Part shown: piece by piece, positions 14,929-27,279 of the stretch
Layout: each line of letters opens with the position of its first letter
Position numbering within the stretch: position 1 is the first letter of the stretch
DNA from: an uncultured delta proteobacterium
GTDB lineage: Bacteria; Desulfobacterota; Binatia; UBA9968
Length of the DNA stretch: 64,000 nucleotides
Assembly (NCBI GenBank): GCA_963755715.1
Contig: CAVWLW010000057.1
Coordinates: 32,001-96,000, forward strand
Reading direction: 5' to 3'
Notes under the pieces: model-generated
Database searches by the model: none
Told to the model about the DNA's origin: nothing
What the model saw: the letters and a program-made list of their open reading frames with translations, nothing else
Program-made: the position numbers and the translations under genes

Positions 14929-16215
14929 TCAAGCGGATTTGTCATCGAGCTGTAAAGCCGCCAGCGCTTTTTCGATCAACAGGCGTCGGACTTTCTTTTC
15001 CTCCGCCGCCGATACTTTGGCATCGCCCACAACGTGAACAATGCCGTTACCAAGCACCAGTCGATTCGCGCCGACCATCTGGGCGACGGACAGCGCCGAG
15101 GTAATTTGCACGGTGGGGATACCCGCCTTCTCCAACTCGGTTGTGATCGCAGCGCCGCTGCGCGTGCTCGTCCCTCACGTGGAAGTAAGGATGACGGCGT
15201 CGATACCGAGTCTTTTTACCTTGTCGGCCATCTCGCGTCCCATGCGCCGCGTATTCGATAATGGGTTGGCCAAACCGGAAGTTGAAATAAATTCGTCGCA
15301 TAGCGCGCCGATGGCGCCCTCACTTTCAAGCTCGCGCAGGACATCCAACGGCACGAGGCGGTCGGGATCTTGCCGGACGAACTGCGGATCGTAGCCGCCG
15401 TGTGAAATCTCATAGTCTTCGCTCTTCAAGTCGTCGCAATCTTTAATGCTATACGAACCCCAGCGTGTTGCCGCCGAGCCTTGGATCTTGTCGGGATTGC
15501 CCTTCGGTACCAAGCCGCCGTCGGTAATCAACATCACCTTCGCGTTCCGCAAGTCTTTGATGCCCGCAGGCATGGGCACCGGTTGAAACGTCGCCGGCGC
15601 CATTTCCGTCTCGAACGGCTCGCCTCGGGTTTTCGCGAGCACCATTTCGACCAGCCGCTCAGCAGCGCTCTTTTCAACGAACTGATCGCGGATCAGACCG
15701 CGCGCAATATAACCCTCCTCGGCGGGAAAACCGATTGGCTCGTGGCGCATCAATTTGACCGCGAGATGCGCCATCTTCTCCAACACGTCGCGCATCCGCG
15801 CCGCGCTGTCGCCGCTGTCGATGATGTACAGCGGTTCGCGATAAAGATCCGCGCCGGGATTTTCCCGCGCCATACCGGTCACCACCGGGATGCCGATTTG
15901 CGATTGTACCGCCGAACCAAGCGCACCCGCGGCCACGCCATATCGCCCGGCCAAAAAACAGGGTCCGGCGACGAACAAATCGGCCTTGCACGCGCGAATT
16001 TTTTCCAACGCCGCAGCAATCAACGACTCTTGATTCTCGACCGCGTAGTTGTCGCCGCAGATAAGGGTCATCACCAGTCGGGCTTCGGCCCCAAGCAACT
16101 GCTCCAGAAGCTTTCCGGGACCTATCGCACCGTCGCGCGTCTCGAGCGGAGTCCCCGCTTTCTCTTCCCCGCCAAGTCCGCCGAAGAACTGATTTAGATA
16201 ATGAATGACGCGCAT
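14929..16215 (-). CDS. grdB: Glycine/sarcosine/betaine reductase family selenoprotein B (GrdB-like), Sec at UGA 15175-15177
   Basis: MRVIHYLNQFFGGLGGEEKA, ICGDNY, AGRYG and HGGYD motifs. The frame continues through TGA: VILTST-U-GTSTRSGAAITTELEKAGIP, joining ORF 14929..15135. Confidence 0.9.
15148..15162 (-). promoter_or_regulatory. Putative bacterial SECIS hairpin for the GrdB-like gene
   Basis: CGCAGC-GGC-GCTGCG: 6-bp stem with a G-starting loop, beginning 12 nt after the UGA. Confidence 0.65.
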
Positions 16216-16228
16216 GATTCCTCCGGAA

Positions 16229-16307
16229 AGGCACTAGGCATTGGGCAACAGGCAACAGTAAGAAACTTTTGTTCTACTTTTGCCAAATGCCTTTTGCCTC
16301 ATGCCTT
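16229..16307. repeat. Inverted array of heptamer repeats (AGGCAnn x4 facing nTGCCnn x4) forming a long imperfect hairpin
   Basis: aggcact aggcatt gggcaac aggcaac ... ttgccaa atgcctt ttgcctc atgcctt, lying between the grdE-like and grdB-like genes. Confidence 0.65.
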
Positions 16308-16308
16308 C

Positions 16309-17583
16309 TCAATACACCATCGATCTTAGCCGCGACGCGCCCTGTTGGTTCGCAACGCCGACCACGTTCAGCGATTCAATTTCGAACGGTCCGGCAAGCA
16401 ATTCGGCCAGGCCGCTGTTCGCCGCGATCACGCGCTCGACCGGGGGCAGAGTCCAGTTCGTGCTATTGCCGCCAACGCAAACAATCGCGTTCACCTCAGG
16501 AAAATTGAACAACAGCGCCGACTCGACGCGATGATCGCGCGCCAGATCGGTAACCTGCACGGCGGTCTTGATGCCGTCGCATTCCAATAGCCGCGCTGTT
16601 TCGGATAAATCGGTGTGTGGCACTCCGCCGCCGAATTTTGTCAGCACTGCAGCATCGGCTCTGAGCGCCCATTTGACCAGATTGGCGCTAAAGCGCGTGT
16701 TGCGCTCTCGGTCGAAGTTATTAGCCGAGGCGATGGTCGCGACCGTGCCGACAAAATTTATTTCATCCGCTCGATGGCGCCGATAGAGTTCCAGAATCAC
16801 CGGATGGTTTTGATAAAAATAAGTTTCCGCGCCGCCGAGCGAGGTGTGATACGAGGTTACGACTGCGCCATCGAGCCATTCATTCGGATGCAGCAGAGTT
16901 GGCAGCAAGCCGTCGGTGTCCGCGCCGTAAATAATCTGTTCATCGGCTTCCGGCTTTCTCTGGCGTGAAAAAATTTGCCCGATATAAGCGATTCGCGGCA
17001 ACCCGCTTCTGTCGCCTGGGGCGGCAAGCTCGAAGGTCTCCGCGCGCTCGGGTGACTTGTCGAAAGCCGCCCGCGCCAAATGCACGGCGACTTTCAATTG
17101 CGCGGAGCGATAAGCTTTGTGGCGGGAATGGATCGGCAAATCGCCGCGCGTATGCGGGATGACGATCAAATGATGCAAAGCCGCGTAACGCGAGCCCGCC
17201 GCCGCGGCGCCGCTCATCTCCAAAACATAACCGGTGGCGCCACGGGAATCGCCGGGCGATTCTTCGCGCAATGCGGTGACCGCTGCACCCGACAAGACAT
17301 GGGTCGTGCCATTGCCGGCCGTCTGCGGCGGACCGATAATACCTGGCCAATCGGGACTTCCGCCCGGCGCCTTAGCTCTCGGCTCGACGATATCGAAGAT
17401 CGGTCCCGCGCGGCAACTCTCGCCGGGGCGCGCGATCTGAAAGTCGACGGCTTCGATCGCGCCATCTTCGAGGATCAATCGGCTGAGCTCCGCTGCGTCG
17501 ACAACTAGCCTCTTCCCTTCGAGATCGAGTCTTTTTCCAAAACAGATTTCCGTGATCGGGTGGATGGCAAGTGTCAGCGGCAT
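16309..17583 (-). CDS. Glycine/sarcosine/betaine reductase component B alpha/beta subunit (GrdE/GrdG/GrdI-like)
   Basis: IARPGESCR.GPIFDIVEPRAK, G.GTTHVLSGAAV, LPTLLHPNEWLDGAVV, TY.YQNHPVILELY and INFVG motifs. Directly upstream of the grdB-like gene. Confidence 0.88.
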   Translation of the reverse strand: MPLTLAIHPITEICFGKRLDLEGKRLVVDAAELSRLILEDGAIEAVDFQIARPGESCRAGPIFDIVEPRAKAPGGSPDWPGIIGPPQTAGNGTTHVLSGAAVTALREESPGDSRGATGYVLEMSGAAAAGSRYAALHHLIVIPHTRGDLPIHSRHKAYRSAQLKVAVHLARAAFDKSPERAETFELAAPGDRSGLPRIAYIGQIFSRQRKPEADEQIIYGADTDGLLPTLLHPNEWLDGAVVTSYHTSLGGAETYFYQNHPVILELYRRHRADEINFVGTVATIASANNFDRERNTRFSANLVKWALRADAAVLTKFGGGVPHTDLSETARLLECDGIKTAVQVTDLARDHRVESALLFNFPEVNAIVCVGGNSTNWTLPPVERVIAANSGLAELLAGPFEIESLNVVGVANQQGASRLRSMVY

Positions 17584-17707
17584 GAAAGAACCCTGCAAGA
17601 AATTTGATATGAATCTAGTTCTGAACGGACTGCCTTGTCAATTCGCATGATTGGCTTGACATCGGGCCTTTGGCGGCATTACGCTCGTGACAAGAGAGGT
17701 TAACGTC

Positions 17708-23860: not shown

Positions 23861-24462
23861 TCATCGATCAAAAACCCCTTCTCTTTCCAGCTGCTCGACG
23901 AAAGACGAATCGACCAGTGATGCCAGGTCGATGTTCCTTGCCTTGGGATTCGCTTCGGCAATCATCGCTGTTAGAATTTTCATCGCGCTCGGATCGGCGT
24001 ATGGCTTCTTGAGCATCAGCTCGCGATAGGTTTCGTAACCTTCCTCAATCATCGCGCGGTTTTTCTCCAATGGCATGCGCAAGTACTTGGCCAAGATCTT
24101 CGACTTGTTGCGATTAAACTGCATCCCTTCAGCCAGCGCCGCGACGAATCCCGACACGGTGCGCGAATCTTCGCGCAAAGAATTCTCCGAAACCGCGACG
24201 ATATTGCGCAGATAGGGCACGTCCATCGGCGCCAGATCCACGAGCAGTTTGTAACCTTCCTTGGCTGCCATCGTTGTGTACGGCGGATCCAATATCGCCG
24301 CCGGCACTTTGTTGCCGAGCAACGCTTCGAAACGCGCCGATTTGCCGCCGATATTGAGCGGCACTACTTAATCCTTCGCGAGCCCGAGCCCAAATGCGTT
24401 TTGCGCCATCAGAGCGAACCCAGCCAACCAGACAAACCCAGGAATGATTTGCCTCGATTCAT
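23861..24462 (-). pseudogene. Internally deleted NMT1/TauA-type substrate-binding protein pseudogene
   Basis: Frameshifted signal peptide (MNRGKSFLG/VWLAGFALMAQNAFG) joins directly to LGLAKD*VVPLNIGGKSARFEALL, with an in-frame TAA at 24368-24370. The C-terminal half (LVDSSFVEQLEREG) is intact. Confidence 0.75.
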
Positions 24463-24497: not shown

Positions 24498-26123
24498 TCA
24501 TTCCAACCGTTCCTGCATCACCGCCACAGTCTGCATATGTGTTCCGGTGCGTCCCGGCAGATACGCCGATTTGGCGCCCGCCCCACCGGCGACGACGAGC
24601 CAAATATCCTCCGGTCGGTCCACGGCGCCAATTTCACGAGCTGCGCCATTTTTTTGAAACCAGCGCGGCCGCCGCTTGGACAACAGTTCGAGATTTTCAT
24701 CTGAAATCTTTTCATGAGGCAGTCGCGCCATAGCGAACAATTCCTGGCGAATGGCATCTTTCGAGTATCCGCCGGCAGCGAAGATCGCCGCGTGCTCCGG
24801 GCAAATTACGAATAGAACCTCCGTCGTGGTCACGCCGCTCGCCAAACCGCCGGTCATCGTCAGCGCGAAGGTCTTGAGCAGTCCTTTGGCCGTCTGGCTC
24901 GCCATATCGACGGCGCTATACACGCCGCTGCAACCCGTGACGCTGACTGTGTCCACGCCCTTACCGACGCTGCGTTCGACATGCAGCGGCTCCCACGGAC
25001 TCGCCTCTTCGTTCTCACCGAAGCAAAAGGTGTACTTGGCCGGCTGCCCGACCGTCGACTTGTCGAATTGCCCGGGAGTCGCCCCGCCGATATTGGCCAT
25101 AATCAATCGCAGCGCCCTGCCGATGGTCGCATTGGCGCGCCATCCCTGGCCGAGCACATTCGCCCCCGAATTGATTTTCAAGCGGTGCCGGCACGGCCCA
25201 TTGACGATAATCATCGGTGCGACATTGCCGGTGGTGGTTTGCACGCCGTCGAGATTGAATCCCGGCAGCAGCACGCCTTTTGTCGCGGCGACAACCAGCG
25301 GAAAATATTCCGGCAAACAGCCGGCCATCACCGCGTTAGCAGCAAGCTTTTCGATCACCGCCCTGCCGTTTAATGGTGGCATCGCGCCGAGGGAAAAATG
25401 CTTATCCAATCCGCTCGCCGCGACCATTATTTCAACCGCCGCCCCCGTCGGCGGCAGAACCGGCAGGCCGTCGCTCCAGCCGCGCTCGATCATCTCGTTG
25501 AATAATTCAGCGGGCTCGCTTGAAACCATAATGAGTGAATCGGAATCATCGCCGTTCGTCCTGTTTATCGCCGTCGCGCCGGCAGCAAATTTACTATTGC
25601 GCAGCAACTGCTCCGCAATCGCGTCAACCGTCGACTCCGCCAACGAGCGCAATCGGTCGAGAGCAATCGATCCCACCGGGTGCGGCACCTTCACCAAAGG
25701 CAAATCGGCCATGCCGCGATTTTGCGACTCGCTCTGAGCCAGGGAAAAGAACTCGTCGGTGACCACCGTGGCGGTCGGAATCGCCGCGCTTTCGAGTTTG
25801 ACGGAGTCGTGGACACTCCACGACGTGCACGAGCCTCAATCGGCAAAGGCGTTGATCACGACATCACAACGCGCAATCAGCTCGGGCAAACAGTCCGCCT
25901 CGGTCCGGCTCATTTTGCACAGCGCCACGAGCTCGATGTCGCCGGCGCGCCGCTTGAGCAGGTCACCGACAAATTGCAGAAACTTGTCGGCATTGGGCTT
26001 GTTGTTGTCGAGCAGACCGACACGCAATCCGTGCAGAGAATCGTGCTTGCGCCGAGCCAGACCGGTTTGCTTGCTCTCGCCGACTCCTACCGGATTGACG
26101 ATTTCGATCGATGTCTCGCTCAT
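24498..26123 (-). CDS. UGSC-motif selenoprotein fused to a C-terminal conserved GWSDGLP-type domain (541 aa), Sec at UGA 25836-25838
   Basis: ORF 25836..26123 (VGLLDNNKPNA...VINAFAD) continues in frame through TGA as U-GSCTSWSVHD into ORF 24498..25766 (VPHP; GWSDGLPVLPPT; NAVMAGC; NATIGRALRL). GGAGG RBS. Confidence 0.88.
25806..25824 (-). promoter_or_regulatory. Putative bacterial SECIS hairpin for the UGSC gene
   Basis: GTCGTGGA-GTG-TCCACGAC: perfect 8-bp stem with a G-starting loop, beginning 11 nt after the UGA. Confidence 0.75.
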
Positions 26124-26169
26124 AGAATGCCTCCGATTAGCCGCGCCGAAATTACGCGCCCGTGGGGAT

Positions 26170-27279
26170 TCAGCGAATTTTTAACATGCGCTCGATGGGC
26201 ACCCGAGCGCGCGCAGCCAGCTCCGGGGCCACGGTAATCTCGTGGACGCCGTCGCGCAAGGATTGATAGACTTTGCGCAAGGTATTCTGCTTCATGAAGG
26301 CGCAGACCGCCTCACGGCTCGCCGGTACGATAGTCTTGTCCGGCGCCGCTTTTGAAAGTGGATAAATATTCCCGACCTCGGTCGCCATGATGACGACTTT
26401 TTGCGGCGTGTCGCGCACGAATTGCACCATCCCTTGGGTCGAACGAAACTGCATCATCTCCACAGGCGTTTTCTCTTGCGCCATCTGGCGCATGCAAGCA
26501 CTGGTGCAACCGCACTCGGGATGGACCACCACCGCCGCATCGGGATAGACGCGCCGTTGCTGCTCGACATGATAGGGACGAATCCGATCGTGCACGTGGC
26601 AGGCGCCCATCATCAGCCACAGCCGGTCCAGCGGTTGGTTTTGCTGCTCTAATAATTTCGCCGCATAGAATCCTAAATAAACATCCGGCAGAAAAAGGAT
26701 CGGCTGGCTCGTCTCCGAGTGTCTCAACACGTGGAGAATGACCTGAGCGGCATTGGCCGATGCGCAGCAGTAATCGCTCTCCGCCTTCACGTCTAAATAC
26801 GTGTTCACGTAACTGATCACGATACCGTCGCGATGCTCCTGCTTCCAGCGGCGGATCTTGTCGACGTCGGCGTGGGCGGCGAGGGAACAGAGCGCGCCGA
26901 GATCGGGCGCGAGCACGCGCTGGTGCGGCTTTTTCATAATCGCGAGAATTTGATTCATGAACAGGACGGAAGCTTCGAGCAAGATTTCCGCGTCCGACTC
27001 GGCGCCCTTCTGCGCTAAATAGAGCGAATCGCCGACCGCGTCGGAGACGTCCTGGATGTCCGACGGCGCATAGTTGTGCGCCAGAATGTAAGCGTTTTTT
27101 TCTTTCTTGAGACGGGCGATTTCTGCCAAAAGCCAGCGATGCTCTTCCGTCGGCACATTCTTCGGCTCGGCTTCCGGCGGCAGCGGTGGGATTTCGAGAG
27201 GCAAACCAAGATCGATCTGATCAATCAAATCGATCGCCTCGCGGGCGGGGAAAATATCACCAGACATCGGTCCGTCCAT
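26170..27279 (-). CDS. nadA: Quinolinate synthase A
   Basis: ILAHNY, GDSL.LAQ, CSLA, SYVNT, FLPD.YLG, GACHVH, VHPEC, ATE and C..MKQNTL; three cluster-ligand Cys present. Confidence 0.93.
   Translation of the reverse strand: MDGPMSGDIFPAREAIDLIDQIDLGLPLEIPPLPPEAEPKNVPTEEHRWLLAEIARLKKEKNAYILAHNYAPSDIQDVSDAVGDSLYLAQKGAESDAEILLEASVLFMNQILAIMKKPHQRVLAPDLGALCSLAAHADVDKIRRWKQEHRDGIVISYVNTYLDVKAESDYCCASANAAQVILHVLRHSETSQPILFLPDVYLGFYAAKLLEQQNQPLDRLWLMMGACHVHDRIRPYHVEQQRRVYPDAAVVVHPECGCTSACMRQMAQEKTPVEMMQFRSTQGMVQFVRDTPQKVVIMATEVGNIYPLSKAAPDKTIVPASREAVCAFMKQNTLRKVYQSLRDGVHEITVAPELAARARVPIERMLKIR

Follow-up and report, generated by a model that had tools for sequence, protein, structure and literature searches.

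An in-frame UGA probably joins a UGSC domain and a conserved cysteine-bearing domain in one selenoprotein of an uncultured delta proteobacterium

Two open reading frames that lie one behind the other on the reverse strand of the 64,000-nucleotide stretch analysed here (the window), one of 95 amino acids (25836..26123) and the other of 422 (24498..25766), raise the question of whether they are separate genes or a single selenoprotein gene and, if a single gene, what its two parts do together. The earlier note on this DNA had claimed that a TGA is all that parts them, and the frame bears this out. Positions 24498..26123 (-) form one coding sequence of 541 residues, which ends in a TGA at 24498-24500 (-) and has as its sole internal stop the TGA of codon 96 (25836..25838, (-)), within VVINAFAD-U-GSCTSWSVHD; around the putative selenocysteine (Sec) the sequence reads NAFAD-U-GSCTSWSVHDSVK. 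This UGA would supply the U of a UGSC motif, an assignment based on TGA and Cys in the aligned column of relatives, and Cys99 (25827..25829, (-)), conserved across alignments, would be the resolving cysteine of the UxxC motif. A Shine-Dalgarno-like GGAGG, read off the sequence at 26130..26134 (-), is located 6 nt ahead of the ATG at 26121-26123.

Conserved sequence flanks the in-frame TGA on both sides. Among the 75 UGSC copies found in 78 related loci (the best 78 of at least 606), column 96 holds TGA in 73, and the remaining two have TGC and CAG. Same-genus orthologues, present in five of 12 genomes, are 67-91% identical and carry exactly one TGA each. An independent soil-metagenome contig also covers codon 96, with no differing letter listed. 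The earlier note had made its proposal depend on homologues with Cys or Sec at the UGA and on a host genome with selABCD. Of 33 full-length relatives, 25 align CGSC with the UGA and the other eight lack Cys at column 96; the Cys99 column holds Cys in 20 of these 33, and when TGA is read as C, an alignment of 33 UGSC domains shows no variation at C96, G97 or C99. The genome encodes the machinery as well: selA (617.3 bits) and selB (416.1 bits) were found above cut-off in the same assembly, as was selD, in two pieces around an in-frame TGA of its own (212.8 and 155.4 bits), together with a tRNA-Sec (76.7 bits versus a gathering score of 47).

A perfect 8-bp hairpin had been described 11 nt downstream of the TGA, and it is indeed there: a SECIS-like element within the coding sequence at 25806..25824 (-), GUCGUGGA-GUG-UCCACGAC, with an 8-bp stem and a GUG loop. 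Taken alone, the hairpin is within chance for a single sequence, as the 76-nt fold of its region has a z-score of -0.46 and 68 of 200 shuffled sequences fold at least equally well. Across 70 distinct homologous sequences, 89.5% of cells show its eight pairs intact, compared with 20-49% in controls that shift the 3′ partner by one to three columns. Both sides have changed in 31 cells, including a switch from G:C to C:G at one pair in 16 sequences, and the covariation score was matched by none of 500 shuffles. A search of Rfam returned nothing relevant, only two snoRNA rows at chance level.

These observations also bear on the possibility that translation truly stops at the TGA or that the TGA marks a pseudogene lesion, leaving the two frames separate or dead, or that the codon is read as another residue. 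Gene callers do split the gene at this TGA, its terminal stop is also TGA, and the hairpin by itself is statistically ordinary. Against such a reading stand the constancy of the TGA column between conserved flanks, the Cys homologues known among relatives, the compensatory changes in the hairpin and the full set of Sec machinery, and we regard it as extremely improbable. Homologue alignments stop at the second TGA, which indicates that TGA still acts as a stop elsewhere. Thus, 24498-26123 (-) very probably encodes one 541-residue selenoprotein, with UGA96 decoded as Sec by the host SelA, SelB, SelD and tRNA-Sec and directed by the conserved hairpin 11 nt downstream.

That standard annotation would miss such a gene had also been anticipated, and the databases agree: the best 120 relatives of its C-terminal domain are all 317-437 amino acids long, none is near 540, and many retain a remnant of the UGSC part. 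Gene callers consistently truncate UGSC/C-domain genes at the Sec codon. Contigs from the RNA libraries of three soil studies contain fragments of the gene, and none of them crosses the UGA with 31 letters to either side; given this and the possibility of DNA carry-over, they are not counted as evidence of expression.

The N-terminal part, residues 7-174 (25602..26105, (-)), is a UGSC domain by profile matches and is predicted to adopt a flavodoxin-like alpha/beta fold. Its proposed membership in the UGSC family, which goes back to Zhang and Gladyshev (2007/2008), is upheld by NF041046 (132.9 bits versus a curated cut-off of 125, residues 32-173) and by PF24696 (155.1 bits versus a cut-off of 25, E 2.6e-45, residues 7-174). 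With that family the protein shares the U-G-S-C motif, the in-frame UGA, the downstream hairpin and the above-cut-off HMM match; whereas the family models span about 150-170 residues, the present protein has an extra domain of about 345. A UGSC (seleno)protein model already exists at NCBI, and its name has been given to one relative. In the accessible parts of papers from 2007, 2008 (PMC2398784), 2022 and 2026, the function of the family is given as unknown, and the accessible part of a 2026 review lists UGSC proteins among the selenoproteins with largely uncharacterised functions. In the structure model, U96-G-S-C99 sits where a beta-strand meets a helix. The rows that Foldseek returned for the full model were all weak, four of them at E <= 1e-3; among the matches listed, those of N-domain size (130-147 aa) with TM of at least 0.5 were a receiver domain, lumazine synthase and flavodoxin, the TM values being target-normalised, 0.50-0.58, and given without alignment ranges. 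No match was found for the domain among solved-structure sequences at E up to 10.

Residues 175-196 (25536..25601, (-)) form the inter-domain linker. With pLDDT of 58-80 in 10-residue blocks, they are the sole internal low-confidence stretch of an otherwise confident AlphaFold model (full-length pLDDT 93.5, pTM 0.94; C-domain model pLDDT 94.1), as the earlier claim of a linker between two domains would have it, and the stop and restart of split forms fall in the same region. Beyond it, residues 197-541 (24501..25535, (-)) form a C-terminal domain of the 'Unknown_1' type, assigned by its motifs and by two near-invariant cysteines, Cys269 of NAVMAGC (codon 25317-25319, (-)) and Cys367 of FCFGENE (codon 25023-25025, (-)). 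The protein has the GWSDGLP, NAVMAGC and NATIGRA motifs, all three of them conserved, and both cysteines reach at least 90% conservation in an alignment of 146 sequences and in one of 59, stand-alone C-domains included. The CPEH cysteine (C441), singled out earlier, did not hold up in this respect: it is present in just 10 of 33 full-length relatives, and C367 is the conserved one instead. Invariant residues of the domain include D218, N331, R336, E370 and W377, along with many Gly, Pro, Asn, Arg and Glu.

The C-domain matched no entry in Pfam or NCBIfam and no PDB sequence (solved structures searched at E up to 1), Foldseek with its model gave no row at E <= 1e-3, and a search of the ESM Atlas returned the protein's own family only. 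When the domain was compared with 48,161 chains by VIA-align, the best Z was 7.0 over 77 residues; because the matches are within the tool's stated background, no fold is named. Two candidate folds were considered and rejected: orotic acid hydrolase, the top Foldseek match at an E of only 3e-3 and a TM of 0.18, and the class I fumarate hydratases, which gave a VIA-align Z of 5.4 over 182-198 residues with an rmsd of 5.1-5.9, as well as weak Foldseek rows. The domain is widespread, with relatives in at least 606 species-representative genomes and 5366 protein-cluster representatives. It stands alone in 65 of the 150 best representatives and has paralogues, including three tandem copies in one related locus (L027) and several copies in the present genome. 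Other architectures include a fusion of UGSC, C-domain and a ferredoxin:thioredoxin reductase beta-type domain (P0233) and tandem C-domain proteins like P0203 without the second cysteine.

How the two domains are related can be read from the related loci, where the fused/split tally rests on counts of in-frame stops, since tblastn alignments run through stop codons. The earlier note described the C-domain as a frequent separate neighbour gene, and this proved right: 52 of the 75 UGSC copies are genes of their own beside one for the C-domain, and the other 23 are truly fused. Fused relatives with a single TGA occur in 21 of the 78 loci. Split pairs occur in either gene order, and 15 copies are split in the same frame, among them the only Cys copy, from locus L025.

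We used this natural split Cys pair for complex modelling. The three runs scored 0.85, 0.84 and 0.85 versus 0.00 for the best control, with contact agreement of at least 91% and partner pLDDT of at least 88. The score mark that the L025 pair attains was also reached by 116 of 157 solved complexes and by two of 215 mismatched pairs, benchmark counts that hold only roughly here because own alignments were used. On the UGSC side, the predicted interface comprises residues 94-96 and 98-100, in which C94 corresponds to the Sec site; on the C-domain side, it comprises residues 73-74 and 77, immediately ahead of the AGC cysteine. In the L025 partner, the counterparts of C269 and C367 are C80 and C178, neither of which is named as an interface residue. 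By eye, about 11 of 48 conserved C-domain residues lie at the predicted interface, versus about eight expected by chance, and we draw no claim from this. The prediction that the UGSC domain docks onto the C-domain, with the Sec loop at their contact surface, is thus a high-confidence one. The Rosetta-stone argument of the earlier note, that the fusion marks the two domains as one redox enzyme, gains support from this modelled complex.

The fusion itself has been known since 2008, when Zhang and Gladyshev (PLoS Genet; PMC2398784) described UGSC fused to a conserved Cys-bearing domain as 'UGSC/Unknown_1', and in the accessible part of their Dataset S1, ocean-metagenome reads carry CUGSC followed by GW(S/T)DGLP(I/V)VPPT, NGVMAGCRPEYMP and NT(A/S)(V/I)GRFWRL. 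Matched by eye to that part of the dataset, the same motifs appear here as GWSDGLPVLPPT, NAVMAGCLPEYFP and NATIGRALRL, within residues 215-340. The present gene therefore adds no new kind; whereas the 2008 examples, as given in the accessible part of the paper (PMC2398784), are fragments in marine and freshwater reads, the gene described here is complete and part of a 7.4-Mb genome. This host genome is found mainly in soil metagenomes.

GrdB and PrdB provide a second comparison. The hhalign comparison of the UGSC profile with the window's GrdB-family selenoprotein placed U96 on U347 over 29-38 columns (E 1e-4), at a weak probability of 54-58% and with just three sequences running through the Sec site on the GrdB/PrdB side. 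Shared features are Sec within a strand-Sec-helix-strand unit followed by ELEKxGIPT, and PrdB is given with the same UxxC motif in Table 2 of the 2008 paper, so far as its text is accessible (PMC2398784). NCBIfam TIGR01917 (GrdB) hits residues 83-157 at E 0.035, with 13 bits versus a cut-off of 602.2 and hence below it, and PF07355 (GrdB/PrdB) was unreported for the UGSC protein even at E up to 10. Unlike GrdB, the UGSC protein lacks the large N-terminal part, and a pyruvoyl partner of the GrdE/PrdA type (PF09338) is not adjacent to the fused gene. The window does contain a genuine GrdE/GrdB-like pair, but as a separate unit at a distance of 7-9 kb, where the PF09338 gene (16309-17598) adjoins its own GrdB gene; the window's GrdB-family protein matched no solved-structure sequence at E up to 1. 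With thioredoxin-fold UxxC selenoproteins (Trx-like, Prx-like), the UGSC domain has in common a UxxC redox motif at a helix N-terminus, but a search at E up to 10 gave it no hit to either kind of family. The rows listed by Foldseek include no thioredoxin-fold chain, although families outside the listing may also match.

The gene neighbourhood varies. The fused gene is flanked by nadA (quinolinate synthase; 26170..27279, (-); PF02445 E 2.5e-87), which lies upstream, 46 nt from the start codon, and by an NMT1-like remnant. NadA is not kept in the orthologues, as the same-genus ones have an Amidohydro_2 gene in its place. Among 105 neighbour proteins scanned, out of 276 candidate neighbour ORFs in related loci, there was no single conserved partner. 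Recurrent neighbours are TctC receptors in Betaproteobacteria, MmgE/PrpD (twice) and DSBA (twice), and acyl-CoA dehydrogenases are present in three loci (L025, L028 and L053). This variable context of catabolic and carboxylate-transport genes hints at a substrate that is either a small organic acid or a carboxylate of the heterocyclic or amino type.

Taken as a whole, the observations are best explained by a Sec-decoded protein of two linked domains that may share an active site, a reading to which we assign an overall probability of about 75%. Our best reading of its function is a two-domain selenol/thiol reductase with a GrdB/PrdB-like Sec loop. A redox role is favoured by the invariant UxxC motif, by the conserved C269 and C367, and by C-domain fusions to AhpC/TSA-type and ferredoxin:thioredoxin-reductase-type modules, which point to a thiol/selenol electron relay. 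The detailed mechanism is more tentative, with odds a little short of even: the two domains would form one composite active site in which U96 serves as nucleophile or reductant and C99 as the resolving residue. On docking of the two domains, the selenol would face the conserved face of the C-domain, and U96 would attack or reduce a substrate, or a cysteine-bound intermediate, held by that domain. C99 would then resolve the adduct, giving a selenenylsulfide that an external thiol or a ferredoxin-linked system could re-reduce. In its logic, such a mechanism would resemble that of GrdB and PrdB, the selenoprotein B subunits with a UxxC motif.

The UGSC domain could instead be a thioredoxin-like electron donor only, leaving all catalysis to the C-domain, for example through C269 and C367 as a dithiol-disulfide pair that the selenol re-reduces without ever meeting the substrate. 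The conservation of both cysteines even in stand-alone C-domains would fit this, as would a protein (P0234) in which an AhpC/TSA thioredoxin-fold domain with CPTS is fused to the C-domain in place of UGSC. So would the eight full-length relatives without Cys at column 96 and the 10 of 78 loci in which a C-domain has no UGSC gene in its flank; together with the C-domains that stand alone, these cases suggest that the C-domain may not strictly need the selenol. On the other hand, the weak alignment of the Sec loop is to its catalytic counterpart in GrdB and not to a thioredoxin, the listed Foldseek matches of N-domain size with TM of at least 0.5 are flavodoxin-like, and the second cysteine is missing from tandem C-domain proteins such as P0203. 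We therefore consider a donor-only role rather unlikely. Less probable still is a module for sulfur or selenium trafficking or for redox regulation, in which the C-domain would act as carrier or as sensor and UGSC would load or reduce its cysteines. The absence of a match to a known catalytic fold and the widely varying gene context are compatible with such a module, and weak Foldseek rows point to selenophosphate synthetase (3u0o_B, E 0.048; 5l16, E 0.095). These rows, however, are within background, the invariant D218, N331, R336, E370 and W377 resemble a substrate pocket, and the paralogue expansion in L027 and in the present genome is more typical of catabolic enzyme families; we hold this explanation to be quite improbable.

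Returning to the two-domain reductase with a composite active site, the pair of UGSC and 'Unknown_1', known from reads of ocean metagenomes and also from groundwater, lake and soil relatives, might represent an abundant selenium-dependent reductase class. In this speculative extension, which we think unlikely to be right in full, a Sec module derived from GrdB/PrdB would have taken a new-fold domain as its new partner, without a pyruvoyl subunit; the substrate, a heterocyclic or amino carboxylate, would be cleaved reductively or have its ring opened, and electrons would arrive via modules of the thioredoxin or ferredoxin:thioredoxin-reductase type. With a partner domain that is very widespread and genetically linked to UGSC, the question of what UGSC proteins do is now more testable. 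Since relatives are found in isolates, such as Robertmurraya sp. 2P01SA and Vineibacter terrae CC-CFT640, and not only in metagenome bins, genetics may be feasible.

The 95-aa and 422-aa ORFs on the minus strand (25836..26123 and 24498..25766 in the ORF list) had been read in the earlier note as a single frame split by TGA only, and translation bears this out: positions 24498-26123 form one frame of 541 residues, interrupted internally only once, by a TGA at codon 96 (window positions 25836-25838) in the context ...CDVVINAFAD-U-GSCTSWSVHDSVKLE.... GGAGG lies 6 nt upstream of the ATG, and the frame is terminated by a second TGA (24498-24500). Since the alignments of relatives also stop there, TGA otherwise serves this organism as a normal stop codon. 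The proposed UGSC-family identity is upheld by matches to Pfam PF24696 (UGSC; residues 7-174, E 2.6e-45) and to NCBIfam NF041046, "UGSC family (seleno)protein" (residues 32-173; 132.9 bits, curated cut-off 125).

The claim that the TGA encodes selenocysteine (Sec) hinged on a genome with selABCD and on homologs aligning Cys or Sec with this codon. The 7.4-Mb source assembly carries selD, selB, and selA head to tail on one contig (G000:C3:71086-75411), selD having an in-frame TGA of its own, together with a tRNA-Sec that scores 76.7 bits (gathering score, 47). We sorted the best 150 of 5366 cluster representatives related to the C-terminal domain (C-domain; residues ~197-541) by architecture. 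Both domains are present and read through column 96 in 33; another 46 start just past this column, as would result from gene callers truncating Sec genes; the remainder comprise 65 C-domains alone, two partial sequences, and four other forms. In an alignment of 33 full-length proteins (500-600 aa), Cys occupies column 96 in 25 sequences and column 99 in 20. Among 75 UGSC copies in 78 related loci of species-representative genomes, the Sec column holds TGA in 73, TGC in one, and CAG in one. An orthologue with exactly one TGA, 67-91% identical, occurs in five of 12 same-genus genomes, a tally that takes in one genome flagged as unpublished (G005), and a sixth genome has the orthologue in two pieces. 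A contig from another study's soil metagenome also spans the Sec codon, with no differing letter listed. We consider this a genuine Sec-decoded gene, with a probability of about 0.9.

The hairpin reported 11 nt downstream of the UGA is present as described (window positions 25806-25824), pairing GUCGUGGA with UCCACGAC around a GUG loop. Its single-sequence fold is unremarkable (z = -0.46; 68 of 200 shuffles were equally good). The 48 nt starting at the TGA give a gap-free alignment of 70 distinct sequences, and here 89.5% of cells at the eight hairpin pairs are paired, versus 20-49% after sliding of the 3' arm. Double changes occupy 31 stem cells; one pair switches from G:C to C:G in 16 sequences, and another from G:C to A:U or C:G in four, and these compensatory changes cross codon boundaries. 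None of 500 shuffles reached the observed covariation score, a count that is not a probability because the sequences share kinship and sit in a coding region. In one soil metagenome, summed contig depth over positions 25808-25871, which cover the Sec codon and hairpin, was 174 versus about 4-15 over the remainder of the gene. The matches of many contigs are confined to these ~40-60 bases, beyond which the contigs diverge. The DNA of this site appears to be shared, near letter for letter, with many other genes or organisms in that sample.

Although the C-domain has no sequence match in Pfam, NCBIfam, or PDB, it is very common: one database search scored 7941 of 8000 candidates at E ≤ 1e-3, and species-representative genomes contain at least 606 loci. 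Conserved across 146 aligned sequences are GW(S/T)DGLPxxPPT, a TT/NGP stretch, RANATIGRA, and SPW, as well as NAVMAGC, with G268 invariant and C269 at least 90% conserved, and KYxFCxxENE, with C367 and E370 at least 90% conserved. Conservation does not extend to the cysteine of CPEH, which occurs in 10 of the 33 full-length relatives. Other architectures also occur. In the cluster representative P0234, an AhpC/TSA thioredoxin-fold domain with CPTS replaces UGSC before the C-domain; P0233 combines a UGSC remnant, the C-domain, and a ferredoxin:thioredoxin-reductase beta-type domain that keeps its Cys-rich motifs; P0203 and similar proteins (~710-740 aa) have tandem C-domains and lack the second conserved Cys.

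We classed copies in the 78 loci as fused or split after checking for in-frame stops; these loci are the ones closest to a fused query, which biases the proportions. There were 23 true fusions in 21 loci (22 TGA, one CAG) and 52 separate UGSC genes directly adjoining a C-domain gene in either order (51 TGA, one TGC), while no UGSC gene was found within the flank of the C-domain in 10 loci. Elsewhere, the source genome encodes a split UGSC(TGA) and C-domain pair on another contig (C59:33367-35214), a lone UGSC(TGA) gene (C59:16979-17431), a lone C-domain gene (C43:32570-33538), and a second, more distant fused paralogue with TGA (C64:149730-150956; 29% identity). Given these counts and the genome's own split pair, both the statement that the partner is often a separate neighbouring gene and the Rosetta-stone argument drawn from the fusion hold. 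Comparable paralogue sets recur in same-genus genomes. A Chloroflexi metagenome-assembled genome (L027:3935-9281) has three tandem full-length fusions, each with TGA at the Sec column, and in alphaproteobacterial loci (e.g., L045, L048, L056, L059) a second, more divergent C-domain gene immediately follows the first.

The full-length predicted model is confident (pLDDT 93.5, pTM 0.94), with low confidence limited to the linker (10-residue blocks of 58-80) and the last three residues. Its N-domain is parallel alpha/beta, and U96 follows strand 88-94 and precedes helix 97-112. Three N-domain-sized structures among the Foldseek matches listed, a receiver domain, lumazine synthase, and flavodoxin, have target-normalised TM ≥0.5 (0.50-0.58); we assign them to the N-domain by inference because the matches come with no alignment ranges. 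On these listed matches the modelled N-domain may be flavodoxin-like rather than Trx-like, the "Trx-like fold" having been suggested in 2008. The C-domain modelled alone is likewise confident (pLDDT 94.1) but lacks a clear relative among solved structures: Foldseek gave no match at E ≤ 1e-3, and with VIA-align both the best match (Z 7.0 over 77 residues) and the longest ones, to class I fumarate hydratases (Z 5.4), lie within the stated background.

We modelled a complex from a natural split pair at locus L025, whose Cys-form UGSC gene adjoins a C-domain gene and needs no recoding. Three runs scored 0.85, 0.84, and 0.85 versus 0.00 for the best control, with at least 91% of contacts in agreement and partner pLDDT of at least 88. 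Of 157 solved complexes, 116 reach the mark passed here, as do two of 215 mismatched pairs, a calibration that holds only roughly because our own alignments were used. The predicted interface includes UGSC residues 94-96 and 98-100, C94 being the Sec position, and C-domain residues 35-38 (PPT motif), 73-74 and 77 (just before AGC), 101, 103-110, 151, 155-156, and 158; the two conserved C-domain cysteines are not among the residues named. PDB searches found no similar solved complex. The model supports binding of the two parts to each other.

The UGSC module carries a conserved UxxC and the C-domain two conserved cysteines, and the two are genetically linked by fusion and neighbourhood. The alternative architectures of P0234, P0233, and P0203 provide additional hints to how the pair may work. 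Selenoprotein B has a Sec loop weakly similar to that of UGSC: NCBIfam GrdB matches residues 83-157 (E 0.035), and an hhalign comparison between 33 UGSC domains and three proteins, the GrdB-family selenoprotein encoded in the window plus two relatives, placed Sec opposite Sec across 38 columns (probability 58%, E 1e-4). We tentatively favour, at somewhat under even odds, a PrdB/GrdB-like catalytic cycle in which the C-domain would hold a substrate, or a Cys-bound intermediate, for attack by the selenol. C99 would resolve the adduct to a selenenylsulfide, and an external thiol or ferredoxin system would re-reduce it. The main rival, in which UGSC merely donates electrons to the C269/C367 pair, seems somewhat less likely.

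The window's GrdB-family ORF (15175-16215, minus strand; PF07355, E 2.5e-132) marks a second selenoprotein gene. It stops at a TGA beyond which the frame stays open for a further 81 codons, reading ...VILTST-U-GTSTRSG... across the stop and ending at 14932. Just upstream is a GrdE-type gene (16309-17598, minus strand; PF09338, E 1e-75), the pair spanning 14932-17598. Of the 120 database relatives listed, 118 align with only about one-third of the stretch searched around the Sec site; most are 346 aa long, a pattern that truncation at the Sec codon would give.

A NadA gene lies 46 nt upstream of the fused gene. Downstream, alignment to an orthologous same-genus locus revealed the C-terminal half of an NMT1/THI5-type binding-protein gene (23861-24388, minus strand), matching residues 193-373 of the full-length neighbour at 78% identity; this remnant is 5'-truncated and lacks the N-terminal ~150 residues. 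Two same-genus orthologues (G004 and G010) have an Amidohydro_2 gene in place of NadA, along with an NMT1-type binding-protein gene, whole in G004 but cut off in G010 by the end of the retrieved locus. The remnant and the differing upstream neighbour suggest local rearrangement. Neighbours at more distant loci include TctC receptors, MmgE/PrpD, acyl-CoA dehydrogenases, and DSBA, among others; this context does not fix a substrate and loosely suggests small-carboxylate catabolism.

Thus, the earlier observation is confirmed and its interpretation supported, but the kind of protein is already known. Zhang and Gladyshev 2008 (PMC2398784) described a UGSC/Unknown_1 fusion, and in passages of their Dataset S1 ocean-metagenome reads show ...CUGSC... 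followed by GW(S/T)DGLP(I/V)VPPT, NGVMAGCRPEYMP, and NT(A/S)(V/I)GRFWRL, by eye the same motifs as in our protein. The 2007 NAR paper describes the selenoprotein UGSC as having no known function, UGSC appears with no domain assigned to it in a 2022 review, and a 2026 review counts it among selenoproteins with largely uncharacterised functions. The gene is a new, unannotated member of the published UGSC/Unknown_1 fusion class. It remains of interest because the function of this abundant family of selenoproteins is unsolved, and our work contributes points that can be tested: a docking model that places Sec in the interface, alternative redox fusions, a Sec loop with weak likeness to that of GrdB, and isolates carrying relatives.
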